Positions 27,976-51,419 of a stretch of DNA of 64,000 bases are shown piece by piece. The position numbers and the translations under genes were made by a program. The stretch lies in assembly GCA_963791045.1 (NCBI GenBank), contig CAWBQK010000011.1:32001-96000 (forward strand). The letters are read 5' to 3'. A model generated the notes under the pieces. That model searched no databases and was not told the origin of the DNA. It saw only the letters and a list, made by a program, of their open reading frames with translations. This DNA comes from Candidatus Latescibacterota bacterium (lineage in GTDB: Bacteria; Krumholzibacteriota; Krumholzibacteriia; WVZY01). Each line of letters begins with the position of its first letter. Within the stretch, counting starts at the first letter, position 1.

Positions 27976-28109
27976 GTAGGCGCGGGTGGCGCCGATGGGG
28001 CCCCCCAAACAAGCGAGCGTTCGCGAGCCGCCGCAGTGTTCGCCTTACCCCGAAAGTCCACGCTCGTAAAAGCGAGCTTGTGTGGGGTAATCGGCGACAG
28101 GACCCGCGC
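27976..28109 (+). repeat. Structured intergenic element, family B copy 1
   Basis: GTAGGCGCGGGTGGCGCCGATGGGGCCCC...GGGGTAATCGGCGACAGGACCCGCGC. Confidence 0.85.
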
Positions 28110-28166
28110 TGGGGCATCGAGTGATAGCTAGAACATAGACGCAAAATGACAGCATGGGAGTAACGA

Positions 28167-30602
28167 ATGTCCGTTGATCGCGAAAGAATCGTTCCCGTCC
28201 AAATCGAAGACGAGATGAGAAGTTCTTATCTCGATTACTCTATGAGCGTGATCATCTCGCGCGCGCTTCCCGATGTCCGTGACGGTTTGAAGCCCGTCCA
28301 TCGCAGGATACTCACCGCGATGAACGATCTCAACCTCACGCACGGACGTCCTTACAGGAAGTCCGCCAAGGTCACCGGTGACGTTAACGGTAACTATCAC
28401 CCGCACGGCACCTCGGCGATTTACGAGACAATGGTCCGTATGGCGCAGGACTTCTCGCTGCGTTATCCGCTTGTTATGGGCCAGGGCAACTTCGGATCCG
28501 TCGATGGCGATCCCCCGGCGGCGGAACGTTATACAGAAGTTCGTATGATGTCGTTTGCCGAAGAAATGCTCGCCGACATCGAAAAAGAGACCGTCGAATT
28601 CGGGCCCAACTACGACGGGTCGCGAATGATGCCGCTCGTGCTTCCCGCCAGGGCTCCAAATCTTCTCGTGAACGGCTCCTCGGGTATCGCCGTGGGGATG
28701 GCGACAAACGTGCCGCCGCACAACCTTCGCGAGATCGTGGACGGCTGTGTGGCTGTTCTCGAGAATCCCGACCTTCCCGATGAGGTGCTTTTTTCGCATG
28801 TCCACGGGCCGGATTTCCCTACGGCTGGAATCATCCTTGGGAGACTCGGAATAGAGCAGGCCTACAAAACAGGAAAGGGCCGCATCATCGTAAGGGCGCG
28901 GACGGGGCTCGAGACACTCAAGAACGGCCGCGAAGCAATCATCATTACCGAGCTTCCATATCAGGTGAACAAGGCGGGTCTCATTGAGCGGATCGCCGAA
29001 CTCGTGAAGGTCGGCACGCTCGATGGAATCGGCGACATTCGTGACGAGTCCGACCGGCAAGGTATGCGCGTCGTCATCATTCTCAAGCGCGACGCCGACC
29101 CCCGAGTTGTCGAGAATCAGCTTTTCAAGCATACGCAGATGCAGGTGACGTTTGGAATTATCTCGCTGGCTCTGGTCGACAACCGTCCGCAGATCCTCAC
29201 GCTGCGCCAGATGATGAACTGTTACCTCGAACATCGTGAGGATGTCATCGTTCGCCGCACGCGTTACGATCTCAGAAAGGCGGAAGAGCGCGCCCATATC
29301 CTCGAAGGTTTCCGGATCGCGCTCGATCACATCGACGAGATAGTCGCTCTTATCAAGGCGTCCGATACTCCGGATACGGCGCGGACGGGGCTTATGGAAC
29401 AGTTCGGTTTGTCGGAGAGGCAGGCTCAGGCCATTCTCGACATGCGCTTGCAGCGTCTCACCGGCCTGGAACGCCAGAAGATCGAAGACGAATACCAGGC
29501 CCTTCTCATAAAGATCGCCGAATACAAAGCGATCCTCGCCGACAGGCAGCTCGTTCTCAGCATAATCAAAGACGAACTCATCGAAATCAAAGACAAGTAT
29601 GGCGATGATCGCCGCACTGAAATCGTCGATCAGGGCCCCATGGTGCTCGACGAAGAGGATCTGATCACCGAAGAAGACATGGTGATCACTATCAGTCACC
29701 ACGGGTACATCAAGCGAATCGCGCTCGATTCGTACAAGCAGCAGCGCCGCGGGGGCCGGGGTTCAACCGGCATCAAGATGCGCGACGAGGATTTTGTCGA
29801 GCACCTGTTTGTCGCTTCGACACACAGCTACATATTGTTCTTCACGGACCAGGGCCGGTGTTACTGGCTTAAGGTCCACCATATCCCGGTTGCCGGGAGG
29901 CAGGCGAGAGGCAAGGCGATTGTCAATCTTCTTGGCCTGTCCAATGGCGAACGGATTACGGGACGTGTGCCTGTTAGTGATTTCGATGAAAACAAATTCC
30001 TGGCGACCGCTACCAAGAATGGAATGATCAAGAAAACACAGCTGAGTCTGTACAGCCGCCCGAGGCGCGGTGGCATATGGTCGATGACACTCAAAGAGGA
30101 CGATCAACTTATCGCGGCGGCGATCACCGACGGCGATCATGATATCGTTCTTGCCAAGAAGGGCGGGCGCGCGATTCGATTCCCAGAGACCGATGTCCGG
30201 TCGATGGGACGGACTGCCGGCGGTGTCCGTGGTGTCAAACTCGACCCGGGTGATGAAGTTGTTGGCATGGCCGTTGTTCACAGAGACGCATCTCTGCTGA
30301 CGGTGACCGAGCACGGCTACGGCAAACGCTCGGCGCTCGAAGATTATTCAACGAAGCACCGCGGGGGAAAGGGCGTCATCAACATCAGAACGACCGAACG
30401 GAACGGCCAGGTCGTTGCGATCAAGGAAGTCCGTGACCAGGATGACATCATGATTATTACAAAGAAAGGCGTCGTAATCCGTTGCCCGATCGCCCAGCTC
30501 AATGTGATCGGCCGCGCCACTCAGGGCGTGAGGCTGATTGCTCTTGATGAGGGCGATGAGGTGATGGATGTTGCGCACCTGGTCAAAGAGGATGAAGAGT
30601 GA
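28167..30602 (+). CDS. gyrA: DNA gyrase subunit A
   Basis: [28 protein letters not shown] (catalytic Tyr), GyrA-box QRRGGRG, beta-pinwheel repeats. Confidence 0.99.
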
Positions 30603-30620
30603 CCAACGGGCACTTAAAAC

Positions 30621-31349
30621 TTGAAGGGAAAACGAGTTTTGAACAACCGATTTGAAGATGAGACCCCTCTCCCCGGAGATGCACAGGCCGCCGATCCGGG
30701 TGAGTTTGCGCTCGAAACGGACAGCAGTCTGGCCGAACGAATTTCGGAGTTCACGGTCAGGCGTATGTCGACATATTACAGGATACTGTTGTCTCTTGAG
30801 AGAAGCTCTGTCGGGACCGTGTCGTCGGCGCGTCTTGCCGAACTCTGCGGCGTTACTTCCGCGCAGGTCCGAAAAGACCTCTCCTATTTCGGTAACTTTG
30901 GGACTCGCGGGTTGGGTTACCAGGTGTCGGATTTGAAGAATGCGATTGTCGGTATCCTCGGTTTGAATCGCGAATGGAGGATGGCGTTGTTTGGCGCGGG
31001 AAGTCTGGGCAACGCGTTGTTTTTCTATCAGGGTTTTCGTGACGATGGGTTCTACTTCGTGCACGTCTTCGATGCCCAAGCGGAACGTGTTGGTCAGATG
31101 TGGCGCGATGTGGAGATTTCCCCCTATGACAAATCAGAAGAATTGCTGGCGGCGAGTCCAGTGGACATCGGTGTGGTGGCAACGCCGGACGAAGCGGCTC
31201 AGGAAGTCGCTGACATTCTCGTCAGACACGGCGTAAAAGGGATCTTAAATTTTGCACCAAGGCAACTATCGGTGCCCGATAATGTCAGACTGAGAAACGT
31301 TAATCTCGCGGTCGCGCTCGAAAGCTTGAGTTTTATGCTTTCGAGATAA
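30621..31349 (+). CDS. rex: Redox-sensing transcriptional repressor Rex
   Basis: ISEFTVRRMSTYYR, QVRKDLSYFGNFGTRGLGY, GAGSLG, GILNFAP; start uncertain. Confidence 0.96.
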   Translation: MKGKRVLNNRFEDETPLPGDAQAADPGEFALETDSSLAERISEFTVRRMSTYYRILLSLERSSVGTVSSARLAELCGVTSAQVRKDLSYFGNFGTRGLGYQVSDLKNAIVGILGLNREWRMALFGAGSLGNALFFYQGFRDDGFYFVHVFDAQAERVGQMWRDVEISPYDKSEELLAASPVDIGVVATPDEAAQEVADILVRHGVKGILNFAPRQLSVPDNVRLRNVNLAVALESLSFMLSR

Positions 31350-31400
31350 TATGCGGCAAACCGGCATGATCTCGATCATGCTCCAAGGTGGGATTGCGAT

Positions 31401-33284
31401 TTGAAAAAGCCAACCAACCATAAGATTTTGCTGATGAAGTTTCATGTGCTTTCGCGAATGGTGATTTTTGCGGCGGTTTTGCTGTCGCTTTCCCTGTCGC
31501 TGCCGGCCGGCACTCCCGTGGCGGCGGATTCCGGGCAGCCGATTCTTGACGGGACGGCTGCTGCTGCGCCCGGCGATGAGGTTTTCGGGCCCGGAAAAGT
31601 TCATTTAACGTTTACCCGCGATGGCCGATGGGTCAATTTTTCCGCCGGTTGGAACGAGGAACGTCCGGTATTTTCATCGGCGGGACTTGTTGTCTATGCG
31701 GAAGCAGACGGTCGCCTCCACGAAGTTATTAATACAGGTGCAGGCGGGCTGAGAATGGGTGAAAGCAAGGGCGGCGCCCGCAGATGTGTCGAGGGTAAAC
31801 GCGGCGGTTTGCGCGCCCCTTCTCCCGATCCGGATGACGACGGCGATGGCCGGGTGGATGAAGATCCCCTCGATGGCGTTGACAATGACAATGATGGTTC
31901 CATCGATGAGGATTTCGCCGCGATCGGCGACGAGATGATAACGATGTGTTACATGCCGGAGCGGTTTGGTGATGATCTTCCGCAGCTCGCCGTGCACCAG
32001 GAAGCGTACGCGTGGGCTCTTCCAAATATCGACGGCGCGATCATGTTGAGTTTAAAAATTAGAAACACAGGGACGCAAACTCTCGAAAACGTACGAGTGG
32101 GTTCGTTCTTTGAAAAAGAAGGACCGTTCTACTGTTCGAACTGGGTGGTCCAACTCCCCGGATCGCCGCGGGCCAGCGCGCTTGTTTGTGAGGATCTGCA
32201 CGGGACGCATGTGGGAATGATTATATTCCCCGGCATTGAAGATGCGAAAGATACATGGACGGGGGGATGTGTTGCCGGTGAGGAAAACCCAAGCACGATT
32301 TTCCTCGACCGCCTAAACGATCCCGCATCGGAGGATTTCGGGAAGTTCCCTGAGCCCACGGTTGAGACGGCCGCTCCGGGCGCGTCTGTTCTGAAGTCCG
32401 GTGAAACACGAATCGATGAAAAGGCCTGGGTGTACGAGCTCTCTCCAGTCGTTGGATCGCTGGGTCCGGATGAAGAAATCATGGTCAACCTTGCGTTTTT
32501 TGCGGTTGCCGAAAAGAATAATCTCGAATCGGCGGCAATAAACACGCTCAAGACATACAACGGTGACGGTATTCACCGGTACCTTCCGCCGCCGGTTTCA
32601 ATGACCCCGCGGGTTGTCTGGGGGGCATACCGGCCGTTCGAAACCGATGACAAGGGTGTCAAACGCGTCGCTGTTGATATTGAAGACCTCGGCGCCGAGC
32701 CCATTACTCCCGGCAGGATTTCTTATTTCAGTGGAATTGATCCGAGCGCCGTGGAGCGTGTCGAGACGGAACCAGGTGTCGAACAGCTCGTTCTCCGGGG
32801 CGAGATGGTCAGAAAGGCCGCTCGCAAAGGGGAACGGATTGTATTGAAAGGCCGTCTCGATGATGGTGAATTCTTCGAAGCGATCTTAAGACCCGAAGAA
32901 AACGCCTTCGCTTCACAAATGTCATTTGAAGACGCGAGAGAATTTTGGAAATCCGCGGGCCGGCTGGAAATGGATCTTCTTAGCAGTTCGCCCAACCCTT
33001 TCCGTGACGCGACGACGATTTATTATGAGATACCGTCACTCATCGAACAGGAAAACGGGAATCGCATCGAGTCCCGTGAACCCGTCGAGATGAGCGTTAA
33101 GGTTTACAATGTCGTCGGCCGCCTGGTGAGCGTGCTCTCCGAGGATTTTGTTTCGCCGGGTGTGTACACGACGCAGTGGCGGGCCGTCGACGAGAACGGA
33201 AACGCGGTTGCGAGCGGCGTGTATTACGTGCGGCTTCTCATCGGAAACAAGTACATCACACAGCGACTGATTCTTCTAAAGTAG
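31401..33284 (+). CDS. Secreted protein with Asp-rich Ca-binding-like repeats and a C-terminal FlgD/T9SS-like domain
   Basis: Signal peptide; DDDGDGRVDED..DNDNDGSIDEDF; PNPFRDATTI..GRLV..W..VASGVYY..LILLK. Confidence 0.85.
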   Translation: MKKPTNHKILLMKFHVLSRMVIFAAVLLSLSLSLPAGTPVAADSGQPILDGTAAAAPGDEVFGPGKVHLTFTRDGRWVNFSAGWNEERPVFSSAGLVVYAEADGRLHEVINTGAGGLRMGESKGGARRCVEGKRGGLRAPSPDPDDDGDGRVDEDPLDGVDNDNDGSIDEDFAAIGDEMITMCYMPERFGDDLPQLAVHQEAYAWALPNIDGAIMLSLKIRNTGTQTLENVRVGSFFEKEGPFYCSNWVVQLPGSPRASALVCEDLHGTHVGMIIFPGIEDAKDTWTGGCVAGEENPSTIFLDRLNDPASEDFGKFPEPTVETAAPGASVLKSGETRIDEKAWVYELSPVVGSLGPDEEIMVNLAFFAVAEKNNLESAAINTLKTYNGDGIHRYLPPPVSMTPRVVWGAYRPFETDDKGVKRVAVDIEDLGAEPITPGRISYFSGIDPSAVERVETEPGVEQLVLRGEMVRKAARKGERIVLKGRLDDGEFFEAILRPEENAFASQMSFEDAREFWKSAGRLEMDLLSSSPNPFRDATTIYYEIPSLIEQENGNRIESREPVEMSVKVYNVVGRLVSVLSEDFVSPGVYTTQWRAVDENGNAVASGVYYVRLLIGNKYITQRLILLK

Positions 33285-33307
33285 ATCAGCCGAGTCATCA
33301 CGAAATG

Positions 33308-33338
33308 GAAAAGGCCGCCCCTTTAGGGCGGCCTTTTC
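33308..33338. terminator. Bidirectional intrinsic terminator
   Basis: GAAAAGGCCGCCC-cttta-GGGCGGCCTTTTC between convergent genes. Confidence 0.85.
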
Positions 33339-33414
33339 TGTGCTCGCTAACCCGGCACGGCTGCGTCCGTAGCAACGCCTGCGATCTGCCTTGGGCTCGC
33401 ACTACGCTGCGCTA

Positions 33415-33496
33415 GGGTCCTGTCATCGGTCACCCCGCGCGTGCTCACTATCGTTCCGCGCGCGACGGGGGCCCCACCAATGCCACCCGTGCCTAC
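33415..33496 (-). repeat. Structured intergenic element, family B copy 2
   Basis: Reverse complement GTAGGCACGGGTGGCATTGGTGGGGCCCC...GGGGTGACCGATGACAGGACCC. Confidence 0.85.
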
Positions 33497-33505
33497 GATA
33501 GGTCA

Positions 33506-36500
33506 TTACTTCAGCAGGACCATTTTCTTCGTCAGTGTCGCCTGGTCGGTTTTCAGGCGGTAAAAGTACACGCCCGATCCTACCGGGTTGCCCCTCATAT
33601 CGCGTCCATCCCAAACCGTATCGTGAAGCCCGGGCGTCCTGTCGCCATCGATAAGATTGCGGACACGTGCGCCGGTCACATCGTAAACAACGAGCGACAC
33701 GTGTTGGGTTGCGCCCTGCGGCACCACGAAATCGATTCGGGTCGTCGGGTTGAACGGGTTCGGATAGTTCTGGTGCAGCGCCGCGTGGGTCGTCGACACG
33801 TGTGGTGATTCATCGTCCTCGATACCCGTGGGCACCTCAAACCCGTAAAAACCATTCCGGTGCGAGTTGGCCTGATAGGTCGGCCAGGGCGCCAGATTTT
33901 CGTCATAGGTGCCGGTCAGGTCGAAGAAGTAAATGTTCTGATCCCAGCTGTGGATGACCATATCGATATCGCCGTCCTGATCGACGTCATCCAGGACGGG
34001 AGTGGATCGGACGGCGTCCTGCGCGGCGATCGGGAACCCGGGCGCGATATTCCCGTTGATGTCCCACGCGTATATATAACGCGTTTCGTCGCCGAGGACG
34101 ATATCGAGTCCTCCGTCTCCGTTGATATCGGCTACGGCGAGCGACGCATTATCGGTGAAATCGTTCGAAAGGACCTTCGGCCATCCGGGGTAGTTGCTGC
34201 CAAGGTGGTTGAAGATCCAGATCTTAGTCTCAATCCCATCCCAGGCGTAGAGAACGCATTCCAGATAGCCGTCATTATTGAAATCGGCAAGCGCGGGCGA
34301 CGGTGTAAAGAATATGTCGGCGATTTTCGCGTTTCGCGGCCAACTACCGGCGGCCAGCGTACCATCGTGGTTTATGAGGTACGCTTTACCAACGAGACCC
34401 TTTGTTTGTGCGAGAAGCTCGATGTGTCCGTCGTTGTCGATGTCTCCGGCACAGATGCTCCCCGCGATATCATTGTTCAGTGCAAACGGGAAGCCGGGTA
34501 CCGACGATCCGTCTTCGTTCAGAACCCAGATACTATCGGCGCGGGTTCCGAGGATAATTTCATCCTTGTAGTCGCCGTCGATATCACAAATCGTCGGTGT
34601 TTCGAAGTGGGTGCTAACGACGGGGGTTCTGAAGAACACGCCATCCGTTCGACGGGTTGTCGTCACCGTCACGGTACTCAGTGCCGTCGGAATTCCATGC
34701 GTAAATGACGCCTCGCACGTCAACGGCTACGACCTCGAAGAACCCATCGCCATTCAGGTCGGCCGCCGCTGGGGCCGCCCGGAACATGTCTTCAGCTTGT
34801 TTCGGCCACCCGGGAAGCGCGTCACCATTGAAATCGACGCAGTAGACCATCTCGGTCCAGAGGTCGGCGGCAATAATGTCGAGCCCCGGCTTGTTGTCGA
34901 GGTTGGCAAGCGCGATGGGCGCCGTGAACTCATCGCCCGCGGTTGTGAGAACGCCCCACGTTTGCGGATCGCCGTCACCATCCTTGAGTTCGAGCCCGTC
35001 GTGATGCCAGGCATAGACGTACTGGTTCCCGCAGACGATCTCGAGATCACCGTCCCCGTCGATATCACCGACAACCGGTGAACTCGTTGTCTGGGTTTTC
35101 ATCTGGATCGGGAACCCGGGCATCTGCGGCGGGTTGGTGCTCGCCGAGAATTCGCCGGATATGACGCTCTCGTTACCGGAAAAGTCGATCGTTGTGACGA
35201 CATAGTAGTAGATCGTGTTGGCGGACAGACCCGTATCCAGATAGACGGCGTGGTCCAGACGGATCGACATTAACTTTTGTGTATGGCCCGCCGGGGTCGG
35301 AAGCTGATACACGTTGTAGCGTACGGCGTCGGGCGTCGTGCTGTGGGTCCACGCGACTTGAAGCCGGTCGAGCCCGAGACTTGGATCGATTTCGAGAGCC
35401 ATGGGTGGATCGGGGACTCTCAATTCGATTGTGTCCTGGTACACATGACCAAAGAGATCGGTCACCGCCACTTCGACAAGATTCTCGACACTCGTATTGG
35501 TCTCCTCGAGGTGGAATCCCGCCAGATTCTCATCGCCGACAAATGGGAACATGTCCGAGTAAGCGTCCGTCCCGTCATGTACGGTTACCTGGCCGCTCAA
35601 GTCGGTCACGACGGCCGTCAGATCCGACGCCGTTCCCGTTCCGTAGTTTTTCAGACCATAGAAGAGGAGGAACTCCTCGTTGTCTTCGTTGACGCCGTTT
35701 CCATTCCCGTAAGGAGGATCGTCGTAGATACGCAACGTCGTGAGCGCCAGGTCGGGCGCGTGGACTTCCCTGCGGAACATGTCCGCCCATGTGGGACTCC
35801 CGTTGTTCTGGATAGAGAGGTCGAACTCTACCGACTGTTCATCGACGATGGCCGCATCAAAAATACACGGACCGGTCGGATGCCGCCACATTTGAACTCG
35901 TTCCGATCACGCCAAACGTTGCCGTGCTGTCGAGGACCGTCGCCAGAGCGTCGTCGCAGCGGAACTTTGCCGTCACGTTGCCCGACGAGGTTCCGCCGGT
36001 GTTTGTCAGTTCGAGTGTGAAGTCGATCGTCTCACCGGCATCGATGATGCCGTCGCCATTGCCGAACGTTCCACCGCTCTGGTCGTCATCGACCGTGAGC
36101 GACGCGAAGTTCACATAGGCGCCGGCGGACGGGATCGACGGTGATCGTGTCCCTGGTGGCGGACGAGGTTCAACCCGGTCACCACAACGGTGATTTCACC
36201 GGGACTCTCCGCCGTAAAATCGAAGACGACGTTGCCGACCGCGTTGGTCGCACCATACTGGTAATCGTCATTATCCTTGGAGAGACAAACAAATGCCGAG
36301 TCGACGGGCACGCCGCCCGAAGTGACATTTACAAGAACACTCGACGTGCCGAGGCCAACATTCGCCACGTGAAACACATCGATGTCTTTCGCCTGTGCAG
36401 TATAGAGCGGCATCTCCGGGTCGGCGAGGAGCGTATAGATATAGTGCGTCCACAGATCGACATTGTCCCCGGCGATGGCGACCGGTGTTCGTGGCAGTCG

Positions 36501-38262
36501 TGAACGGGCGAAGGTCTCGCCGATATGGACGACGTTATCGTTGAACAAGAGTTCGTAATACTCGTTCATATAATTGGACGAAGAGTTGGGGTAGGCGCTC
36601 TCGTTGGCCCCGATTACCGAAACGGCGCCGCCGTTGGGGTTGGCGAGAAAGTGTTCGGCAAGACAGAAGAACTGATATGCCGCCGCGGTGCAGTTGAGCA
36701 TGTAGAGATTCGTCAACCGGCAGCCGTTCGTCAACAAATCGACGTCGGAGTTCTCGACGCTGGCGTTGGCCGTGGACATCGTAAACCGGAAACCATGGCC
36801 GATATGATTGACATGATTGAACCCGACGTCCATGGAGTCGAGGGCGGCCTGTTTTGTTTCGGGCACCGCGTTTGTGAAGAGCCAATCGGTCTCATACATC
36901 TTTATAATATCGATCGGTTTGCCCTGGAGACTCGTCGCATAGATGAACTCGGCGAAGTCGGCGCCGTTTAGGCTCAGAGGCAAGTCCGGCCACTCGAGTG
37001 GGAAGAGAACTTCGGCAAGAAACATATATCGATTGAGGTAGTCCGCATCGCATGGCGTCTCATAATCGATGATCTTGTCGATCATGAGCGAGACGTCGGC
37101 GAGGTCGGACCGCGCTATGCGGCCGTTGTAGACTTCCGCGTAGAGATCGGGGTTGTCATATGGGACGAGTTTGAAGCCCTCGCCCCAGTACTTGTCGTGA
37201 GTGTCGTTCCACGAACCGTCGAGACACCCGAAATACATATCGGCGGTGAGTTGTGTGCCGTTTAGATGGTATCGACTGAGCGCGTACCTCGGCGGCATGA
37301 TGTCTGTGTCACCGCCAAGAAGAACGTATGTGATTCCCCACTTGGCGTATGCGTCCTGGATAAAGAACCGTATCGTCTCCTGGAGATCGACACCGTTGCG
37401 CGTATTTGCCTCGATCCACTCCACCGTCCGCACCACCGTCGGCACGCCCTTTGTCGTTTTCCAGTCGGCGAGACGCTGGTACTCGCCCGCCAAAGCGTCG
37501 GTCGTAACGATCAAGATAATCGACGGGGCTTCCCTCGAGCGACGGATAGGTCGTCGGCTGAAAGCCGCCCTTCTCCTTCTCCACCGCCACCTCGTCGAAC
37601 ATGTAGCGCCCGTTCATCTCCGGGTTCACCACAAACGCTTCGAGCATCGACTCCACGCTCTTCTGGAAGCCTTCGCGGAAACGCTCGCGGACCACTGGAA
37701 CATCCGTAGCCAGCGTCGTCGTGATCTCGACCGTCACCTTCTCGGTGAGAACCAGGTCACCCGAATCGACACGAACCGGAAAGACGGCAAACGAAGCGAT
37801 CGCGCGTCCGTGGAGATAGCTTGTACCAAGGTAGCGCCCGAGCGCTTCGGGGAAAACCGTCCCCGCATCGGACGCGGCGGCAAGCGGCTCACCCCGGCCC
37901 ACCGTGCCATCCTCGGCGACCATAGGGCCCGCCTGGGCGATTGCGGCACGGCGGAGCATTGTCAGCACGGGACCGTCGGCCGTGAACCGGAACGACTCAA
38001 CCGTGTCCCCCTGCGGGAGAAGCACACTGATAATACGGTATGGAAGCTCGGGCGATCCTTCTTCCGCCAACAGATCGTAACCGGCGGCCGAGACCTGAAT
38101 CGTCGCCACACCGGCGTCGGTCAGGACGGTTACGTTTTCTCTGGGGAGTTGGATCAGAAACGACAGTTTCTCCGCGAAGGTTGTGGAAGCAATAGATGTG
38201 CACAGGAGAATAACAATCAACCCAATGGCGAATCCCGGTCGCCGGCGGGGAGTTCGATGCAT
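33506..38262 (-). CDS. Large secreted C25 (gingipain-like) cysteine peptidase with FN3-like, FG-GAP/VCBS repeats and a FlgD/T9SS-like CTD (about 4 apparent frameshifts)
   Basis: Propeptide GSPELP; LADWKTTKG, YVLLGGD, NHIGHG (His), MLNCT (Cys), LLADP; DIDGDG repeats; QNYPNPFNP..GVYFY..KKMVLLK. Confidence 0.9.
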
Positions 38263-38532
38263 GAGTCCCTCCTCGGTGAGACACCACCAACGAATGACAG
38301 TGGGCGTACGCAGTACGACACTCGTCAGCTGTTATTAGCGGATGTGAACGAAAACGATCGGTGCACTAAGGCGGTAGCAGTGTAGGTAGGTCCGCTCCTT
38401 GAGGGCGCGCTGCAATCAAAGCGACTTTTCCAATTGTCAGGCGGCAAGTTTACAACATTTCTTGGCAAATGTCAAGACGCACGCCCACGGGGGGCGTGCG
38501 TCTTGCGTTCTCATGATTGGAGCGAGTCGGGC

Positions 38533-41554: not shown

Positions 41555-41842
41555 ATGAAGATCTACGTGGGAAATCTTTCGTTTTCTACAACGGAAGACT
41601 CGCTTCGTACCGTGTTCGAAGAGTTCGGTACGATTGAAGAGGTAACGATCGTCGAGGATCGCGAAACGGGTCGTTCGCGTGGGTTTGGCTTTGTGACAAT
41701 GTCCGATGCCTCGGCGGGGGCTGCCGCGATCGAAGCGGTCAATGGTCGCGAAGTTGACGGTCGTGCTTTGAACGTGAACGAAGCGCGCCCCAAAAAACAA
41801 GGCGGTGGTGGCGGCGGTGGTGGCGGTTTCAGACGTCGCTAG
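41555..41842 (+). CDS. RRM RNA-binding protein with Gly-rich tail
   Basis: IYVGNL (RNP2), RGFGFV (RNP1), VNEARP; GGAGG RBS. Confidence 0.96.
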   Translation: MKIYVGNLSFSTTEDSLRTVFEEFGTIEEVTIVEDRETGRSRGFGFVTMSDASAGAAAIEAVNGREVDGRALNVNEARPKKQGGGGGGGGGFRRR

Positions 41843-41867
41843 AGGCCATCAGCCTTGAACATCTTCA

Positions 41868-41904
41868 AACGGGATCCGCCAGGTGCGGGTCCCGTTCTTC
41901 TTTT
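41868..41904 (+). terminator. Intrinsic terminator
   Basis: AACGGGATCCGC..GCGGGTCCCGTT followed by CTTCTTTT after the RRM stop. Confidence 0.75.
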
Positions 41905-41995
41905 CGATCCCGCTCCATGCTGGTTTGTGCCCCGTCGCCGTGCTATACTGTCAATGCCTGCATGATCCCTGACAACCCAGACAGGTGGTGATAAT

Positions 41996-42754: not shown

Positions 42755-43056
42755 TTCCCTCCTCCTTTTCGACAGGCGATTCGTGCTGGCCCGTGTCTTT
42801 TTGGCACGGGCCTTGTATCCCTTCCGAAGTTTATGTCTCCAATTCATGTGTTTTGATAGGCCGTCCCGAATTGTGCTAAGGTGTTACATCTGAGCATGAT
42901 AGAGGGTATGTGAGCAGGATTTGACGGATGTCTTTCAAAGAAATGATAGTCAGAAGATTCCTGGAAATCGCGGTGCGAGTGCATAGCCCGCGACAGCTGC
43001 GGGTATGGCAGCGCAGATTCTTCAAGGCCAGGTTGATCGCATCGGAGGTAATGCGG

Positions 43057-43593
43057 ATGGACAACGCGCTCATCATTTATCATTCTGATACCGGCAACAC
43101 GGAGAAGGTGGCGTTGGCTATCAAAAGGGGGATCGAAAGAGCGGGATGGTCGGCTACGCTCGAAACCGTTGAGGAAGCGAAGGGCACCGATCTATACGAT
43201 TACGATCTGGTCTGTATCGGCTCCCCGGTGATTCACGCCCTGCCGCCAAAGAAAGTTTTTGATTTCATCGAAGCGAACGACATCCGGTATCGCGAAGAAC
43301 GAGAAGTCATGCTGGCTTCGCCCAAACTCATCAACAAAAACGCGGTTGTGTTTTGCACGTACTCGGGGCCGCACTGCGGGATCAATGAAGCGCTCCCAGT
43401 CGGAAAATATATCCGCCAGTTTTTGGAGCATTTTGGATTCGATGTGAAAGACGAATGGTACGAAGTTGCTCAGTTCAACGGGTGGGACGAGGGCAGCACA
43501 AAGGGAAGGCTCGGGGACATTCGTGAGCGCCCGACAGAAGATGATTTGCTGCTCGTTGAGCTCAAGGCGGCGCAACTGACCAGATCCCTTTGA
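43057..43593 (+). CDS. Flavodoxin-family protein
   Basis: IYHSDTGNTEKVA, DLVCIGSP, VFCTYSG. Confidence 0.88.
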   Translation: MDNALIIYHSDTGNTEKVALAIKRGIERAGWSATLETVEEAKGTDLYDYDLVCIGSPVIHALPPKKVFDFIEANDIRYREEREVMLASPKLINKNAVVFCTYSGPHCGINEALPVGKYIRQFLEHFGFDVKDEWYEVAQFNGWDEGSTKGRLGDIRERPTEDDLLLVELKAAQLTRSL

Positions 43594-43803
43594 GAAACCG
43601 GCATTGATCAGCTGGAGCAGGATGAGCCTGATTGTCCTCTTGTCCTCTCGCATCGTTACATTCCTTTCTTGCGTTGTTGCTTCGGCGGCAGCCCTCCCAA
43701 TCTGCGATTGTTTACCTGTTGCTTGATATTCTCCAAATAGACACATTGATGTCATTCATAAATTAGCTTGATACATAGCTTTAACCTATGTATGGTTTTG
43801 GTG

Positions 43804-45465: not shown

Positions 45466-45515
45466 AATGATGTTCGCCGAGCCGGGCGAGCGGGCGATAT
45501 ACTGAATTAAACATC

Positions 45516-45947
45516 ATGACACAAAAAAGAAAACATCCTCCCTTCTTTTGGATTTACATGCTCGAGTGTGAAAACGGCGCGTACTATACGGGCTACTCGA
45601 CCAATCTTACCCGTCGTTTCAGACAGCACGTCGATGGCACGGCCAATGTGAAGTACACGCGCACCCATAAGCCCGTGCGAATCGCCCAGTGTTGGCGGCT
45701 GTACGACGCGGTTGGGACTGCTCTGAAGGTGGAGAGGGCGATCAAAACAATGGGGCGGAAGGCAAAAAACCGTCTCGTTGGAGAACCCATGGCGATCAAA
45801 AAACTGGTCGCGGCACGCCTGGGCACCGAACTCGATATTTACACGTTTGATCCGGTGAAAGTAGAAAAGGCGGCGAGGTCGCTTCCCGCCGATGATATCA
45901 AGACCGCCGAGGATCCGATGGCGGCAATGCCGCCGGGCGACTACTGA
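45516..45947 (+). CDS. GIY-YIG nuclease (UPF0213-like)
   Basis: WIYMLEC..YYTGYSTNL.RR..QH..KYTR..ALKVE..IK. Confidence 0.9.
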   Translation: MTQKRKHPPFFWIYMLECENGAYYTGYSTNLTRRFRQHVDGTANVKYTRTHKPVRIAQCWRLYDAVGTALKVERAIKTMGRKAKNRLVGEPMAIKKLVAARLGTELDIYTFDPVKVEKAARSLPADDIKTAEDPMAAMPPGDY

Positions 45948-45979
45948 CTCGATCGGCCCTCGACGCAACGGCCGGATTT

Positions 45980-47098
45980 CTAGTACAAACTTACGTACTT
46001 GTATTCCATCATATAGGGTCCGTAACAAATCGACATGTAGTAGCTGCCGGTTGGGAAATACTCCTCGTTCACGTCATCCCAAAATTTGTACCGAATCAAG
46101 CGGTTCTTCCCCGGCAGAGAATTCTGGAACAGGTCGTCCACCACGCGGTCGCCGCATGTCACGTCTTCCCACCACCAGAATGTTTCCTGAAGGCTGATTC
46201 GAGTGACAGCCGTCTCGGAACCTCTGAATAGCACATACATCGTTTCCCCAACACCGACACTGGCGGGGAACGCCCAGAGAATCTCTCCGAATTTCAGGCC
46301 GGCGGTGAGGTTTGACAATTCCGACCAGTTGTCTAACTCGTCGGCGACCTTCATTGCGAAAAAGAAGTTCTGGTTGTACAACCCCGTCACAACAAAAGAT
46401 TCCGCTTCGCCCGATGGCTTTGGCGCCATCGAGTTGGGAATCGGTACGGCGCTATTCCATTGGGTCTCGTTTTCAATGGGTCGAATCGAGTAACGGATCT
46501 CATAACGGCTGGCCGTGCCCGAATAGAAGTCGTCGCCCGTCGCCGTCCACACCAGCACGAACGATGTGTCATTCGGAGCCTCGGCGTAGAGGTCCGAGAT
46601 GGGCGCCGGCGCGAATTCCTCCATCTGAGTTGTGCCGTCACAACAGTTGGACAGGGCGGATTCATTGCCTTCCTCGTCGGACGTCTTGAGCGCGAAGTGA
46701 TACTTCGTGTTGGATTCGAGACCGAGGATCACAATCGTCTCGATACTGCCCGCGGGCCTGGGCGTGGGTATCAGATTGGGGTCGATAGAGGTCGCCAAAT
46801 CCCATTCGTCATTGATAATCGGGTTCTGTGAATACCGAATGTCGTAACTATCCGCGGTCCCCTCGTGTGCGTCATCCCCGGGCGCGGTCCAGACCAGCGC
46901 CATGGACTGGTAGGTGTGCGTGTTGGTGCGGAGATTGGCGACCGTTGAGGGTGGGATGGAGTCGGGTTGTGGGTTCACAACAACGCCGTTTACAGGTGGC
47001 CCGTCGTCGTCGCCGCCGCAGTTTGAGATGGTAAGCGAGGTCAAAGCTACGAATGTTGCGAGGACGAGGAGAAAAAGAGAGCCGCATGGATTTCTCAT
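45980..47098 (-). CDS. Secreted protein or lipoprotein with two FN3-like repeats
   Basis: Two copies of WTA.GDD..GTA..Y.IRYS..FA.K..DE..N.S.LSN; possible lipobox ISNC. Confidence 0.85.
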   Translation of the reverse strand: MRNPCGSLFLLVLATFVALTSLTISNCGGDDDGPPVNGVVVNPQPDSIPPSTVANLRTNTHTYQSMALVWTAPGDDAHEGTADSYDIRYSQNPIINDEWDLATSIDPNLIPTPRPAGSIETIVILGLESNTKYHFALKTSDEEGNESALSNCCDGTTQMEEFAPAPISDLYAEAPNDTSFVLVWTATGDDFYSGTASRYEIRYSIRPIENETQWNSAVPIPNSMAPKPSGEAESFVVTGLYNQNFFFAMKVADELDNWSELSNLTAGLKFGEILWAFPASVGVGETMYVLFRGSETAVTRISLQETFWWWEDVTCGDRVVDDLFQNSLPGKNRLIRYKFWDDVNEEYFPTGSYYMSICYGPYMMEYKYVSLY

Positions 47099-47529
47099 CG
47101 TTGTCTCTGCCCTTGTTGGAGTCGGACGCGTACCAAATAATTATAGCATATCTCTGGTGGGGTAGAAGGCCGTACAACTGTATATACGGCGGATCCCGCG
47201 TCAATGTTTCCGGAGCTGTGTCGCCACTCCACCCGGCGAAGCCTGACTTTCTGCGCGAAGTTTACAAACGGGCTCCAACCTTTTTGGGGAATTCCCCCAG
47301 AATTCGATGTCACAGGCTTGCGTATGGTTCCTCATCACGGCGAGTAATCCCTTTAACATAAACACATTACGAAGTTTACCCCGGGCGAGCCAGCGCCCGG
47401 CAGGGGTCTTGCAGTTGTATTTCAACGGCAAGCCCACTTTTTAATATTGATGTTAAGCGAAATCGGGATCGGTCGCTAATTTGGCCGGGGTAAAGGTCCC
47501 CGATCAAACGCCGAATCTTTAAGCGTCAC

Positions 47530-47865
47530 ATGCCGCGGGAAAGGAGTTTCAAGTTGGTAATTATTCGTGGCCAGGTTCATCCGAATCGGCTCAAAAACGC
47601 ACGCAACAAGCTCGCGTCCCTTTTCGGGCCGGGACGGTGGAAGATCGAATACACGGTGCGGGACCATATTGGCGAACATGTCGACAAAGGCAGCTCCAGA
47701 GCACAGTCGAACGGGTGTTTTGCGCTCACCGTCGACGCGCGGGGACCCAGTACCGTCGAGGTCCGGGTCAAGGGAGGAACCGCTTACCTGGACGACTTCT
47801 GTACCGTTGAACTGAACTCCGGTACCGATATAGTCAATTTGCCTCGCAGGCTGTATCCCAAGTAA
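47530..47865 (+). CDS. Small hypothetical protein
   Basis: 111-aa ORF in an otherwise empty interval; no family recognised. Confidence 0.45.
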   Translation: MPRERSFKLVIIRGQVHPNRLKNARNKLASLFGPGRWKIEYTVRDHIGEHVDKGSSRAQSNGCFALTVDARGPSTVEVRVKGGTAYLDDFCTVELNSGTDIVNLPRRLYPK

Positions 47866-48187
47866 CTCGTCAGATACACGGCCGGCGCGTCGAACCGGCA
47901 CGTCAGACAAAAATTGCCGACACGCCGTCCCGCAACGGATGTGTGGAATGTTGCCTGCATGACCCGTCAGGATTCACTTCAGTCCGGGGGGCGTTGTCCC
48001 GCGCCCCCTTTGGTCTGGCAAAAAGTGTCCACCATCACCCGTGATTCCCCGCGGACGCCCGCCAGGTCCCCCGCTGCGATGGGAAATTTCAACTCGATTT
48101 GATATACTCTTTATAGAAATCACATCCGTCGCCTTGCACCTGTTTCGACTTTCACTCCCCACGCCATCTCCTTTCGTTAGGGCAACA

Positions 48188-50071
48188 ATGCAAGGAAGAA
48201 CGCGCACGTTTCTGAACTCACTTCGCCTCGCACTCTTGCTGGTGCTCATGACGACGTCTTGCAGCGATGACGGCGTCCGTCCACAGGAGGGTGCAGCCAC
48301 TAAGCCCGGGCTCTCCGGCTGGTTCTGGCAAAACCCGCTTCCGCAACAAAACACACTCCGCGATGTTTGCGCAATTTCCGCCGATGCTGTCGTGGCGGTA
48401 GGGGATATCGGTACCGTCATTATGACGATGGATGGGGGCGACACATGGCGGTCGCTCGTGACTGGAACTCCCAGAGATCTTTTTGGTGTGTATTTTATGG
48501 ACGCCAATCGGGGGTGGGTTGTGGGAGACGCCGGAACGATTCTTTGTACGACAAACGGCGGAACGTCCTGGTCGGATCAGACGAGTTTTCCCACGATCAG
48601 ACTCAATGCCGTCTTTTTTGCAGACGCGCTGACCGGTTGGGCGGTCGGCAATCGAGGCGCCATTCTCGAGACGCCCGACGGAGGGGAGACGTGGGCGCTT
48701 TTGCCGAGCGTGACGGTTTCCAATCTCCACGATGTTGTTTTTGTGGATACCCAGACAGGCTGGGTCGCTGGTGACAACGGCTCGGTTTTCAAAACGACGA
48801 ACGGCGGCGATACCTGGACGGGCGGTTTTGCCGGTGGGTCGGCGGGCGCGTTTCGCGCCGTGGCATTCGTTGACAAGAACAAAGGCTGGGTCGTCGGTAC
48901 CGGCGGAGACATTCTGAGTACGGTGGACGGCGGCGGCGAATGGACGGCGCAAGATAGCGAGACGTCGACCGAATTGACCGGGGTGGATTTCGCGGACACA
49001 ACGATGGGATGGGTGTGTGGGGTGGCGGGCTTGATACTCCAAACGGTGGACGGCGGCGATACGTGGACGTCGCGGGCCACCGAATCAGGTGAAGACTTTT
49101 ATGAAATCGACATGACGGGCGACGCAGGGTGGATCGTGGGCGTGTCGGGAGAAATTTTGACCACGCAGAATGCGGGTGAAGCCTGGGAAACCCGGAAGAA
49201 CGGGGAGGAGGATGATCTGCGTGGAGTGTGCGCCGCGAGCGAGACCCACGCGTGGGCGGTTGGAGACGGCGGCCTGATACTCTCCACAACCGACGGCGGT
49301 TCGGAATGGCTCCCGCTCACGAGTGGGACGACAATCGATCTCAACGACGTGTATTTCGTCGGGACTCAGACGGGATGGGTGGCCGGCGCCGAAGGTTATA
49401 TCGCCTCAACATCGGATGGGGGTGTTACGTGGACCGGGCAGGACAGCGGAACCGATCTCAACCTCGTCGAGGTCTGGTTCCTGGACGATGATTTTGGATG
49501 GGTGATTGGCGGATTGTGGACGGGTTCCGCTACCGCACAGGTGATTCTGAAGACAATCGATGGCGGGGAGGAATGGACTCCCATTGAAACAGGGTCAAAC
49601 TGGAAACCCAATGGCGTTTACTTTGTCGACCGAAATGTTGGTTGGATTGTCGGCATCGGCGGAAGGGTTCTCACCACGGTAAACGGCGGAGAGGACTGGG
49701 TCGTCCACAAGTCGGGGACTTACAAACATCTCTACGATGTCTGGTTTGCCGACGAGAGAACCGGCTGGGTCGTCGGAGACAGGGGAGCACTTCTTCGTTC
49801 GGACGATGGCGGGAATACCTGGGTCCCGCAGTTCAGTGGAGGTGACATCGATCTCCTCGGCGTGACCTTTGTCGACGCCAACACAGGTTGGATTGCCGGG
49901 GCGGGTGGCCTGATTCTAAAGACCGAAAATGGGGGGGCGACGTGGGACCCTCAGTTCTCAGGAACGATCAATAATTTCCAGGAAGTGTGTTTCGTCTCGC
50001 CGGATAAGGGATGGGTGGTGGGCCGCTATGGAATTATCTTGAAAACGGTTACGGGCGGTGAATTCAAATAG
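48188..50071 (+). CDS. YCF48/BNR(Asp-box)-repeat lipoprotein
   Basis: Lipobox TTSC; 14 T.DGG.TW units, consistent with two 7-bladed propellers. Confidence 0.92.
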   Translation: MQGRTRTFLNSLRLALLLVLMTTSCSDDGVRPQEGAATKPGLSGWFWQNPLPQQNTLRDVCAISADAVVAVGDIGTVIMTMDGGDTWRSLVTGTPRDLFGVYFMDANRGWVVGDAGTILCTTNGGTSWSDQTSFPTIRLNAVFFADALTGWAVGNRGAILETPDGGETWALLPSVTVSNLHDVVFVDTQTGWVAGDNGSVFKTTNGGDTWTGGFAGGSAGAFRAVAFVDKNKGWVVGTGGDILSTVDGGGEWTAQDSETSTELTGVDFADTTMGWVCGVAGLILQTVDGGDTWTSRATESGEDFYEIDMTGDAGWIVGVSGEILTTQNAGEAWETRKNGEEDDLRGVCAASETHAWAVGDGGLILSTTDGGSEWLPLTSGTTIDLNDVYFVGTQTGWVAGAEGYIASTSDGGVTWTGQDSGTDLNLVEVWFLDDDFGWVIGGLWTGSATAQVILKTIDGGEEWTPIETGSNWKPNGVYFVDRNVGWIVGIGGRVLTTVNGGEDWVVHKSGTYKHLYDVWFADERTGWVVGDRGALLRSDDGGNTWVPQFSGGDIDLLGVTFVDANTGWIAGAGGLILKTENGGATWDPQFSGTINNFQEVCFVSPDKGWVVGRYGIILKTVTGGEFK

Positions 50072-50089
50072 CCGAGTGCGCCGATATCG

Positions 50090-50132
50090 AAAAGAGGCCC
50101 CGGCGGTTTTGAAGCCGGCGGGGCCTCTTCTT
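50090..50132. terminator. Bidirectional terminator
   Basis: AAGAGGCCCC..GGGGCCTCTT between convergent genes. Confidence 0.75.
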
Positions 50133-50147
50133 GTCGTCAACCGTGGT

Positions 50148-51170
50148 CTACGGTTCGTCGGTTACGGACGGAGCGCTGGTGACTTCGATCTTCTCCCATG
50201 TGGAGATCTCATCGACAAACCGCTGCGACAGAACGGCGAGGTCAACCGCTTCGACATCGAACTCTTCGAGAACGAGTTCGATACGACTCAGATTGGCGGC
50301 CGCTTTGAAATTCGATTCGTCGGCATCGACGGCGATCCGATAGACATCTTCGGCGGCGCGGTAACGGCCGGTGAGTTCCAGCGCCATCCCCAGGTTGTTG
50401 CGGAACATCGCGACGTCGCCCTTGAGTTCAACAGCGCGGGCGAGTGGTGGAAGCGCCTTGTCGTACATTTCTTCCTGGAGATAGATCATTCCGAGGTTGT
50501 TCATTGACCAGGCGTCCTGGTCGTCGATCTGAATCGCGCGCCGATATGCTTCGACGGCCTGCGGGTTTTGGCGAACCTGGCGGAACATGCGGCCCTTGAG
50601 ACGGTACGCGGCGTTCGATTCGGGATCGACGGAGAGCGCGTCATTGATTCTGTCGAGAGCGTCCATCGGGCGGCCCCTGTCGAGAAGCACGCGGCTCAAG
50701 TTGAGGTTGCTCTTGACGTGATCAGGATCGAGTTCGAGCGCGCGCTCGAATGCCTTTTCGGCCACTTCATAGTCACCGGATTTCCATGCGGAGAGCCCGA
50801 GCATGTAGTGTCCCCACGGATTCTCGCCCTTATGATGTGTATACGCGGTGAAAAGTTCGGTCGCGTCTTCGTAACGCCGCTCACGGTAGGCCGTCTCAGC
50901 CTCTTCGTAGGTCACTTCACGCGGTGGTTCGAATTTGGCGACCATGGTGTCTTCGCGTTCATCCTGCGCGACACTCGCGACTAGTTCGTCCTCGAGATCG
51001 ACAGTCGCCGGCAGTGACGGAGTGGAACGCTCCGTCGTCAACAATGCGACGTCTTGGGGTGACGTGTTCTCGTCACCGGTCCAGTCATATACGGCGATGA
51101 AGACGAGGGCCATGGCAACGGCCGCCGCTCCCAGTATCAATACACTTCGTTTCTGCAATGCGCTCATCAT
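50148..51170 (-). CDS. Membrane-anchored TPR protein
   Basis: AGGAGG RBS, one N-terminal TM helix, TPR units (FERALELDP, YRRAIQID, NNLG). Confidence 0.9.
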   Translation of the reverse strand: MMSALQKRSVLILGAAAVAMALVFIAVYDWTGDENTSPQDVALLTTERSTPSLPATVDLEDELVASVAQDEREDTMVAKFEPPREVTYEEAETAYRERRYEDATELFTAYTHHKGENPWGHYMLGLSAWKSGDYEVAEKAFERALELDPDHVKSNLNLSRVLLDRGRPMDALDRINDALSVDPESNAAYRLKGRMFRQVRQNPQAVEAYRRAIQIDDQDAWSMNNLGMIYLQEEMYDKALPPLARAVELKGDVAMFRNNLGMALELTGRYRAAEDVYRIAVDADESNFKAAANLSRIELVLEEFDVEAVDLAVLSQRFVDEISTWEKIEVTSAPSVTDEP

Positions 51171-51235
51171 GATGAGCCTCCTTTCAAGTACCTGTCCTGT
51201 GGCACGTGCTCGGATCGACAGACGCCTTCGGCGCC

Positions 51236-51419
51236 AGGCGCGGGTGGCATCGGTGGGGCCCCCGAGGCGGCGCAGCGTCGCGGAGTGCGGGTGGCGTGCA
51301 CGGCGCTTTTGTCGACGACCGAGTGGTCGTTTCGTGACCGGTGCTGCTATCGGCGAATCAGCGATCCGCACGAAGCGTTAGCGAGCACGCCTGGGGTGAC
51401 CGATGACAGGACCCGTGCC
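51236..51419 (+). repeat. Structured intergenic element, family B copy 3
   Basis: AGGCGCGGGTGGCATCGGTGGGGCCCC...GGGGTGACCGATGACAGGACCCGTGCC. Confidence 0.85.

Follow-up and report, generated by a model that had tools for sequence, protein, structure and literature searches.

The window, which is the whole 64,000-nucleotide stretch of DNA analysed here, contains three copies of a hairpin-forming repeat (Table 1). The tip insert of copy 1 is itself a repeated module that is also present in other scaffold variants, for example at C19:13150–13296 of the same genome. Copy 2 sits between the convergent genes 31401–33284 (+) and 33506–34723 (−), and its outer stem, P1, is truncated at the 3' side. 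The junction of this copy with the adjoining second module recurs at further loci of the source genome. The neighbours of copy 3, which encode a TPR protein (50148–51170) and a sigma-54 activator (51612–52967), are both on the minus strand, so that this copy is antisense to both.

Table 1. Hairpin copies, their parts and the genes discussed, in window coordinates.
Feature	Position	Strand	Details
gyrB	26059–27966		Pfam
Copy 1	27979–28110	+	Between gyrB and gyrA; covariance-model score 73.6 bits
Copy 1, P1	27980–27987 with 28102–28109		GCGCGGGT with ACCCGCGC
Copy 1, loop bases	27988–27989; 27997–28000; 28097–28101		GG; GGGG; ACAGG
Copy 1, P2	27990–27996 with 28090–28096		CGCCGAT with ATCGGCG
Copy 1, tip insert	28007–28083	+
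gyrA	28167–30602		Pfam
Second repeated module (TAGCGCAGCGTAGTGCGAGCCCAAGG...)	33378–33414	−	Joined to 3' end of copy 2
Copy 2	33415–33493	−	Short canonical form; 87.3 bits
Small GIY-YIG gene	45558–45947	+	No flanking copy
Copy 3	51237–51419	+	Long nested tip insert, about 51263–51392

The first-pass annotation described three look-alike stretches at these places with a shared scaffold, and pattern matching and shuffles bear this out. The left core of the scaffold, GGCRCGGGTGGC-N5-TGGGGCCCC, and the right core, GGGGTRAYCGRYGACAGGACCC, each have exactly three matches in the window; dinucleotide shuffles of the window give means of 0.00 and 0.03 matches, respectively. The inner stem (stem A, here P2) pairs as claimed, namely as CGCCGAT/ATCGGCG, CATTGGT/ACCGATG with one G-T pair, and CATCGGT/ACCGATG, and AG[C/T]GAGC lies ahead of the right arm in all three copies. 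The proposed GTAG start stands for copies 1 and 2, which are preceded by GTAG, but copy 3 is preceded by CCAG and a GTAG foot is not a feature of the family. The upstream consensus in the source genome is only ggcgCGGGTGGC, and among 117 copies from other genomes the bases past GCGGGT differ between copies and form pairs with the 3' flank.

The element is a single three-helix hairpin of about 70–100 nt or more with conserved asymmetric loops. The outer stem, P1, ends in CGGGT/ACCCG and is followed by an asymmetric internal loop, in which 5' GG faces 3' ACAGG, and then by the covarying stem P2 of 6–9 bp. Most copies have in addition a second loop (GGGG(C) versus T-R) and a distal stem, P3, whose tip can be exchanged, while minimal forms retain P1-GG-P2-loop-ACAGG only. 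The tip motif, CGCAG versus CGAGCAC, has its halves swapped in one lineage. Such swapping is how a single-strand 3D motif behaves, and it would fit RNA and ssDNA alike.

Support for the structure comes from an alignment of 94 distinct sequences, which was fitted to the model structure and includes many sequences retrieved by a pattern fixing the conserved motifs. Here, 94.8% of cells are paired, versus 76.7% in shuffles and 37–54% with slid partners, and two-sided change is seen in 18 of 27 pairs (367 cells versus 80 expected). The earlier proposal of conserved pairing and conserved unpaired bases in a multi-copy family is thus upheld. Copies within the same genome have diverged in sequence yet still pair. 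Folding energy is uneven across the three window copies: the DNA-fold z-scores are −4.12, −0.43 and −2.11 for copies 1, 2 and 3, and 0, 55 and 4 of 200 shuffles, respectively, fold as well. The case for structure therefore rests on many-copy covariation and not on stability. Among the non-Watson-Crick positions of the stems, G:T is no commoner than A:C (30 versus 24). The element belongs to no Rfam family, with no match at gathering score over the window and none to E = 10 at eight loci.

A covariance-model search of the source genome and its relatives found many further copies, far beyond three. The source genome has about 53 loci, totalling 6.9 kb. Within the order of the source genome, 29 of 36 genomes carry it and seven do not; in the phylum, 36 of the 151 genomes sampled are carriers, all confined to three of nine sampled families, and the other six families lack it. 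Two relatives assembled as one contig carry 6 copies (G010) and 45 copies (G015), and many matches in genomes of the order lie at contig ends. At least 118 loci occur in public records labelled as several phyla. Five genomes labelled as other phyla have 32, 9, 5, 2 and 2 matches; that with 32 is 1.4 Mb in size and its copies are GC-rich amid AT-rich surroundings. The viral contigs and the plasmids searched gave no match. A narrow literature search found no published description of the element.

In several respects the element behaves like mobile DNA. A genome of the same genus has empty sites at two orthologous positions, and one intergenic site that is filled in genome G163 is empty in 10 of the 10 relatives compared. 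Copies also interrupt genes in frame. An insertion in tsaD splits the Pfam profile into 1–46 and 50–215, another lies in a heptosyltransferase gene, and three ORFs of the source genome contain in-frame copies. A source-genome ORF has a copy between S8 and beta-helix domains, and the element adds about 30 residues to some proteins. In addition, near-identical composite copies occur at different loci, the same inserts are shared across several loci, and the places occupied by copies differ from one relative to another. Around the hairpin itself, no target-site duplication was detected. Contigs from four DNA runs were short and came from related organisms, and they held no usable pair of filled and empty alleles.

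The flanks suggest where insertion takes place. Outside the source genome, every copy has its own upstream flank, which is complementary to the one on its 3' side. In G163, this complementarity averages 4.7 bp over 20 copies versus 1.3 in controls, and the flanks are inverted complements, not direct repeats. No empty site of high enough identity was found to date these flanking palindromes relative to insertion. The element receives insertions of other small modules and also of its own copies, which then lie nested inside the loops of other copies. In one family of relatives, the hairpin occupies the centre of a terminal inverted repeat (TIR) element with the TIR TAGTGTCCTGTCCCAGAAGTTCC... and TA on both sides, and this carrier element likewise has an empty site in a same-genus genome. 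These are signs of targeting to the tips of other hairpins.

A mover was sought with PF01797, IS110, RVT_1 and HNH searches, none of which gave a fitting candidate. The earlier suggestion of a RAYT was not confirmed: PF01797 (Y1) was not found in the source genome, which is 81% complete, nor in the one-contig carriers G010 and G015; among 41 relatives two had it, and control genomes gave matches. The small GIY-YIG gene, which had been put forward as a candidate, has no element copy beside it and is therefore not part of the element. Reverse transcriptase (RVT_1, PF00078) was rejected, being found in none of five element-rich genomes, and so was IS110, found in only two of the five. A many-copy HNH protein family of the source genome, present in 49 of 151 phylum genomes, was also set aside. 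Genomes G001, G005, G009 and G010 have hairpins without an HNH match, G012, G013 and G026 show the reverse, and the sole hairpin adjoining an HNH copy in the source genome has inserted into a decayed HNH gene. Scanning of 150 flanking reading frames (of 212 prepared) gave no match to transposase or integrase families. ORFs between inverted hairpin pairs in G161 had no Pfam, NCBIfam or PADLOC match.

The best-fitting explanation is a non-autonomous mobile DNA element that may well work as a single-stranded DNA hairpin. The invariant unpaired bases would be recognised by a protein that acts in trans and binds or cleaves this folded strand. Y1/RAYT transposases and reverse transcriptases would not qualify as this protein, and IS110-type enzymes are unlikely candidates. 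Hairpin and palindrome tips would be the favoured insertion sites, and this would explain the complementary flanks peculiar to each copy, the nesting of copies in loops and the copy centred in the TIR element. The stems may stay complementary through a combination of selection for folding and arm-to-arm template switching in replication, and the latter route would produce Watson-Crick pairs with no excess of G:T. The strand bias expected of a single-stranded mechanism is inconsistent between genomes: 34 of 48 copies in the source genome (GC-skew proxy) and, with the origin at dnaA, 24 of 45 in G015 and 4 of 6 in G010. A bolder and more tentative possibility is that the mode of mobility is itself undescribed. 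It could involve either an unknown hairpin-specific nuclease or recombinase, horizontally transferred among at least five phyla, or a palindrome that copies itself into hairpin tips by host replication enzymes alone. The GG/ACAGG junction would be the sole fixed signal either way.

The first-pass annotation left open whether this was a mobile hairpin or a structured ncRNA. It is unlikely, if conceivable, that the element is a structured RNA working in transcripts, in 3'-end protection, as a processing or pause site or as a small RNA, with loops bound by an RNA-binding protein and mobility as a mere route of spread. The strong covariation, the invariant unpaired bases and the swapped tip-motif halves, which recall modular RNA motifs, are consistent with such a role, and many copies, including copies 1 and 2, lie directly past stop codons. 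The 43 oriented intergenic copies of the source genome, where convergent sites outnumber divergent ones by 12 to 4, also lean this way, but the 86 copies of other genomes, classed by a crude longest-ORF rule, show no convergent excess (21 sense, 26 antisense, 14 convergent and 25 divergent), and we place little trust in either count. The copy at locus L127 is bordered by an A-run and a T-run and is terminator-like, whereas the T-run of an intrinsic terminator is absent 3' of all three window copies. Orientation is independent of the neighbouring genes. Between co-directional genes of the source genome 17 copies are sense and 10 of the 27 antisense, copy 3 opposes both its neighbours, and G015 has 24 plus-strand versus 21 minus-strand copies. 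There is no shared promoter because the flanks are unique to each copy. Functional RNAs usually have many more G:U pairs than the G:T and A:C counts given above would allow, and the copies translated within genes and the lack of an Rfam match also argue against an RNA. The empty orthologous sites, the in-frame gene copies, the untied orientation and the lack of a G:T surplus thus favour mobile DNA over an RNA gene; the mobile, non-autonomous half of the earlier proposal stands and the ncRNA half is the less likely one.

The order-wide persistence of the element could also mean a host function. A DNA site kept by selection in host lineages for a chromosomal protein, such as a nucleoid protein, topoisomerase or replication/repair factor, is a role that has been proposed for some REP sequences, and here it seems improbable. 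Carriage by 29 of 36 genomes of one order, the continued pairing of diverged same-genome copies, the 32 GC-rich copies amid AT-rich surroundings in a 1.4-Mb genome and the lack of a fitting transposase in the PF01797, IS110 and RVT_1 searches would all agree with it. Against it, the element is patchy, being absent from seven genomes of that order and six of nine sampled families of the phylum, relatives do not keep copy positions, and some copies lie within genes. Moreover, only a near-universal protein could serve as partner in phyla this far apart, and near-universality is at odds with this patchiness.

A GTAG-type REP/REPIN mobilised by a RAYT (Y1 HUH) transposase is a very improbable reading. 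The element does form intergenic hairpins in many copies and with compensatory stems, and GTAG does precede two of the three window copies, but GTAG is not conserved and PF01797 was not found in the source genome, G010 (6 copies) or G015 (45 copies), with only 2 of 41 relatives positive. The three helices and 70–100 nt or more also contrast with REPs, which are 20–40 bp in the passages cited (PMC3733652). An attC-like recombination site of an integron-type tyrosine recombinase is hardly credible, since the similar layout of two helices, an unpaired spacer, further unpaired bases and a variable-length terminal part comes with an inner stem of CGGGT/ACCCG instead of a GTT/AAC core, with single copies scattered between housekeeping genes and no cassette arrays, and with no integrase in the 150 flanks scanned.

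REP, RPE, Correia and similar small palindromic repeats as a rule stay within a single genus or family, and to our knowledge REPs alone among them have a known mover, the RAYT. It is unusual here that the same unpaired bases recur in uncultured bacteria labelled as several phyla, and that one 1.4-Mb genome has 32 copies while no RAYT, reverse transcriptase or shared IS110 was found. Finding the partner protein or mechanism would provide a second worked example of how small palindromic repeats spread, and a partner might prove to be a new structure-specific DNA enzyme. In annotation work, the covariance model flags a repeat at which assemblies break.

Among known systems, the element resembles the REP/REPIN-RAYT system in being a many-copy, mostly intergenic palindromic hairpin with compensatory stems and some copies in genes. 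One core sequence of this element recurs across phyla, whereas a REP family is in most cases limited to a species or group. It differs further in its three-helix form, in having no conserved GTAG or CGTC tag, in the nested inserts of its tips and in that the PF01797 search found no RAYT in its carriers (the source genome, G010 and G015). Both may act as ssDNA hairpins recognised via unpaired bases, as proposed for REPs (PMC3733652; see also PMC3116915 and PMC3337134).

In behaviour alone, the in-frame copies in tsaD, the heptosyltransferase gene and the three source-genome ORFs are like those of Rickettsia palindromic elements (RPEs) and CGTC-tagged REPs, which the cited passages describe as inserting in frame into protein-coding genes and adding peptide (PMC10969869, PMC3733652). 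Like both, the element is a palindromic repeat without a known dedicated transposase. Its sequence is probably unrelated to either and lacks the end CGTC tag; unlike RPEs, it is mostly intergenic (3 of about 53 loci in ORFs) and occurs in several phyla instead of one genus.

The element shares with TIR MITEs (Correia, ERIC and IS630-derived) its small size, lack of autonomy and many copies, and in one family of relatives it rides as cargo inside a true TIR element. The hairpin itself has no TIR-plus-duplication signature, its flanks being inverted complements, and its arms covary between copies, which is not expected of transposase-bound TIRs. attC sites have two helices with an unpaired spacer, extra unpaired bases, a variable-length tip and a GTT/AAC core. 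Both attC and the end hairpins of IS200/IS605 work as folded ssDNA in which unpaired bases, not stem sequence, set identity and strand choice. The present element lacks the GTT/AAC core and the arrays of attC. The Y1 transposase of IS200/IS605 was not found in its carriers (the source genome, G010 and G015), and its two ends pair together, whereas the left and right ends of IS200/IS605 do not pair with each other. It is a REP/RPE-like hairpin element of unusual breadth.

The three copies reported by the first-pass annotation are real: the left-core and right-core patterns each have exactly three matches in the window and almost none in shuffled sequence. Its readings of the sequence hold as well, since the stem A variants are read at all three copies, the loop bases GG, GGGG and ACAGG are identical among them, AG[C/T]GAGC lies ahead of the right arm, and GTAG is upstream of copies 1 and 2 only. 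Copy 3 is antisense to both of its neighbours because the two flanking genes are on the minus strand. The DNA-fold z-scores of copies 1, 2 and 3 are -4.12, -0.43 and -2.11, and the window copies would not stand out by fold stability alone. At several loci a module, TAGCGCAGCGTAGTGCGAGCCCAAGGCAGATCGC..., sits after the right end ...GACAGGACCC and takes the place of the 3' strand of the outer stem, P1; the resulting repeats are mosaics, resembling E. coli BIMEs.

Positions of the hairpin copies, associated modules and other repeated families (G000 is the window's own genome; C, contig; L, extracted locus)
Feature	Source	Position	Strand	Remark
Copy 1	window	27979-28110	+	between gyrB and gyrA
Copy 2	window	33415-33493	-	between two convergent genes whose proteins have secretion-sorting tails
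Copy 3	window	51237-51419	+	between minus-strand genes for a TPR protein and a sigma-54 activator
TAGCGCAGCGTAGTGCGAGCCCAAGGCAGATCGC... module	window	33378-33414	-	also at G000 loci on C3, C9, C13 and C15
GGCCTTTCGAAAGACCGCACCGTCCTC-type flank module	G000 C2	102390-102535		example of ~9 copies
GGCCTTTCGAAAGACCGCACCGTCCTC-type flank module	G000 C5	76795-76988		example
GGCCTTTCGAAAGACCGCACCGTCCTC-type flank module	G000 C9	147576-147778		example
Tandem array	G000 C13	258830-259040		outside window
HNH family	G000 C15	166688-168052		outside window
HNH family	G000 C9	109138-110436		outside window
HNH family	G000 C13	54957-56253		outside window
HNH family	G000 C2	114165-114800		outside window
HNH family	G000 C1	127488-128672		outside window
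HNH family	G000 C11	167579-168828		outside window
Other palindrome	G169 C18 (L240)	6800-7300		at about 80-125 of the locus
Inverted hairpin pair	G161 C18 (L244)	31700-33500		encloses 252-aa ORF
Inverted hairpin pair	G161 C19 (L245)	36800-38450		encloses 179-aa ORF

One long hairpin is common to the single-sequence folds of 70 copies. It consists, in order, of P1 (ending in CGGGT/ACCCG), the loop GG/ACAGG, stem A (P2), the loop GGGG(C)/T-R, a distal stem (P3) and, at the end, a small tip whose internal loop is CGCAG/CGAGCAC. In a model-fitted alignment of 100 matches (94 distinct), which is biased towards the model, 94.8% of cells are paired, a share that drops to 76.7% in shuffles and to 37-54% when the partners are slid. 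Stem covariation extends beyond the three copies: 18 of the 27 pairs change on both sides, and 367 cells do so where 80 are expected. Because many of the aligned sequences were recovered by a pattern fixing CGGGTGGC, GGGGCCCC and GACAGGACCC, these segments are invariant partly by construction. Model-only matches in a one-contig relative include minimal forms, GCGGGT-GG-CGCCGAC-GGGCT-GTCGGCG-ACAGG-ACCCGC, and a 102-nt class without GGGGCCCC; therefore, the core of the element is P1, GG, P2 and ACAGG, and the distal part is replaceable.

The G000 assembly comprises 3.66 Mb in 21 contigs and is 81% complete. Here, the strict two-end pattern finds 26 left-core/right-core pairs, at least two of which are composite or minimal loci and not plain full copies, and blastn with these 26 as queries yields 53 loci totalling 6.9 kb. 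Repeated modules inserted into the tip and arms divide the copies into size classes, and composite copies carrying the same inserts occur at different loci with ~94% identity. The module GGCCTTTCGAAAGACCGCACCGTCCTC(T)TCAAGAG lies upstream of many copies and the related ...CGAGGGCC.GAGAAAGACCGCACCG downstream of many, so that some hairpins are inside a larger repeated unit. A tandem array outside the window repeats an identical ~60-nt unit, in full at least three times over the part read; the unit is the reverse complement of a module inserted in hairpin arms.

The family proves to be multi-copy in other genomes too. A covariance model based on 19 short copies, with 125 candidates scored per genome, detects the element in 29 of the 36 genomes belonging to the same order; a single genome gives up to 39 or more matches. 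A broader model finds it in 36/151 sampled genomes of the phylum: carriers make up 6/9, 15/17 and 14/33 in three families, and the element was not found in the other six sampled families, including 0/60 in the largest. With one genome per species, the exact pattern matches at least 118 loci. Among the matches listed (80 titles), all are metagenome-assembled genomes, and the submitter labels are Krumholzibacteriia/Latescibacterota, Deltaproteobacteria, Solirubrobacterales and other Actinomycetota, Omnitrophota, Vicinamibacterales, Chitinivibrionia and others. The contigs of several matches are between 145 kb and 990 kb long, and therefore mis-binning cannot account for the breadth. Five genomes from this set have 32, 9, 5, 2 and 2 matches; the viral contigs and plasmids searched gave none. 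In five relatives (G001, G004, G009, G011 and G030), many matches fall in the first 100-200 bases of contigs, and the element seems to break these short-read assemblies.

Filled and empty sites bear on mobility. Two sites filled in G010, a one-contig carrier, are shorter by about the unit size in G012 of the same genus, and an intergenic site filled in another genome, G163, is empty in 10/10 relatives fetched. Between G011 and G005, also of one genus, the flanks are 77-80% identical, and the insertion can be resolved base by base as a terminal-inverted-repeat (TIR) element, TAGTGTCC...GGACACTA, which is bordered by TA on each side and has the hairpin at its centre. At two loci both flanks lie in one gene: tsaD is interrupted between profile positions 46 and 50 and a heptosyltransferase gene is likewise interrupted, the element being translated through in frame in each. 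Three short G000 copies are also in frame within long ORFs, and one of them separates a subtilase domain (residues 145-422) from a beta-helix domain (718-855) within a single ORF. At the intergenic G163 hairpin site, the relative G169 carries instead a GC-rich perfect palindrome of different sequence, CCTCCCCCACCGCGGGGGTGG / CCACCCCCGCGGTGGGGGAGG, which may be a second hairpin element that uses sites of this type.

The flanks themselves suggest where the element lands. The surroundings of the GC-rich element are AT-rich in G163, and most of the 20 copies examined there have mutually complementary flanks that differ from those of other copies. This pairing averages 4.7 bp, versus 1.3 bp for flanks from different copies, and reaches 5 bp or more at nine of the 20 copies versus 3% of controls; in other genomes it extends up to 10-25 bp. 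In addition, nested copies lie within the loops of minimal copies, other modules occupy the hairpin tip, and the TIR element carrying the hairpin is itself a palindrome. The simplest reading is that the element would insert at hairpin tips; alternatively, flank complementarity could have been made after insertion by replication template switching.

A structured RNA, as also proposed in the first-pass annotation, is a less likely reading, kept at low confidence. A working RNA is expected to allow G:U far more than A:C, and the non-Watson-Crick stem cells number 30 G:T and 24 A:C. Orientation relative to genes is free: by our own rough gene calls, of the 43 oriented intergenic G000 copies, 27 lie between co-directional genes (17 sense, 10 antisense), 12 at convergent and 4 at divergent sites, and a one-contig relative has 24 plus and 21 minus copies. 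Each copy has its own flanks, which leaves no common promoter, and some copies are translated. These four results point to DNA. In favour of RNA, the halves of the tip motif are exchanged between strands in a Solirubrobacterales-labelled subfamily, as is usual for single-strand 3D motifs; this fits folded ssDNA or RNA, not duplex DNA. An Rfam search for the element gave no match.

None of the candidate movers tried fits. Mobilisation by RAYT had been suggested; Y1/RAYT was not found in G000, occurs in 2/41 relatives and is absent from both one-contig carriers. The GIY-YIG gene of the window, also put forward, has no element copy adjoining. Reverse transcriptase is found in 0/5 element-rich genomes and IS110 in 2/5. 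No transposase or integrase was found among 150 scanned flanking reading frames (of 212 prepared), which are ordinary housekeeping genes. The distribution across the phylum of a many-copy HNH protein family of G000 does not track the element. This family (~425-455 aa, C-terminal HNH domain) has 14 matches in G000, is present in 49/151 phylum genomes and has a common conserved region of 200-280 nt upstream of the gene; an Rfam search of one locus gave no match, and the family appears to be a mobile gene family in its own right. Two pairs of inverted hairpin copies ~0.9 kb apart, in a genome labelled Deltaproteobacteria, each enclose a different ORF, without matches in Pfam, NCBIfam or PADLOC; these ORFs may be cargo between two hairpin copies. 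Copies favour one replication strand in G000 (34/48, p = 0.0055, by a GC-skew proxy); with the origin placed at dnaA, no bias is seen in G015, the other one-contig carrier (24/45), and the count in G010 is 4/6.

Our best reading, held with middling confidence, is a mobile hairpin that is recognised by way of its unpaired bases. This part of the first-pass proposal stands, with empty sites and in-frame copies in its favour, and its GTAG/RAYT and GIY-YIG leads are not supported. The hairpin is of interest because of its breadth and its missing mover; a narrow literature search found no published description of it. Its layout resembles that of integron attC, whose core sequence and genomic context are different. 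The hairpin falls outside the GTAG/RAYT class, failing the tests for tag, size and transposase alike. Nearest in way of working are REP/REPIN and Rickettsia palindromic elements (RPEs). In the relevant passages of PMC3733652, REPs are 20-40 bp long, have GTAG or CGTC end tags, lie inside genes in several species and, in the CGTC class, lack a dedicated transposase; those of PMC10969869 describe in-frame insertion of RPEs into many genes. The hairpin is set apart by a single junction sequence common to several phyla, by its three helices and nested inserts, and by the complementarity of its flanks.
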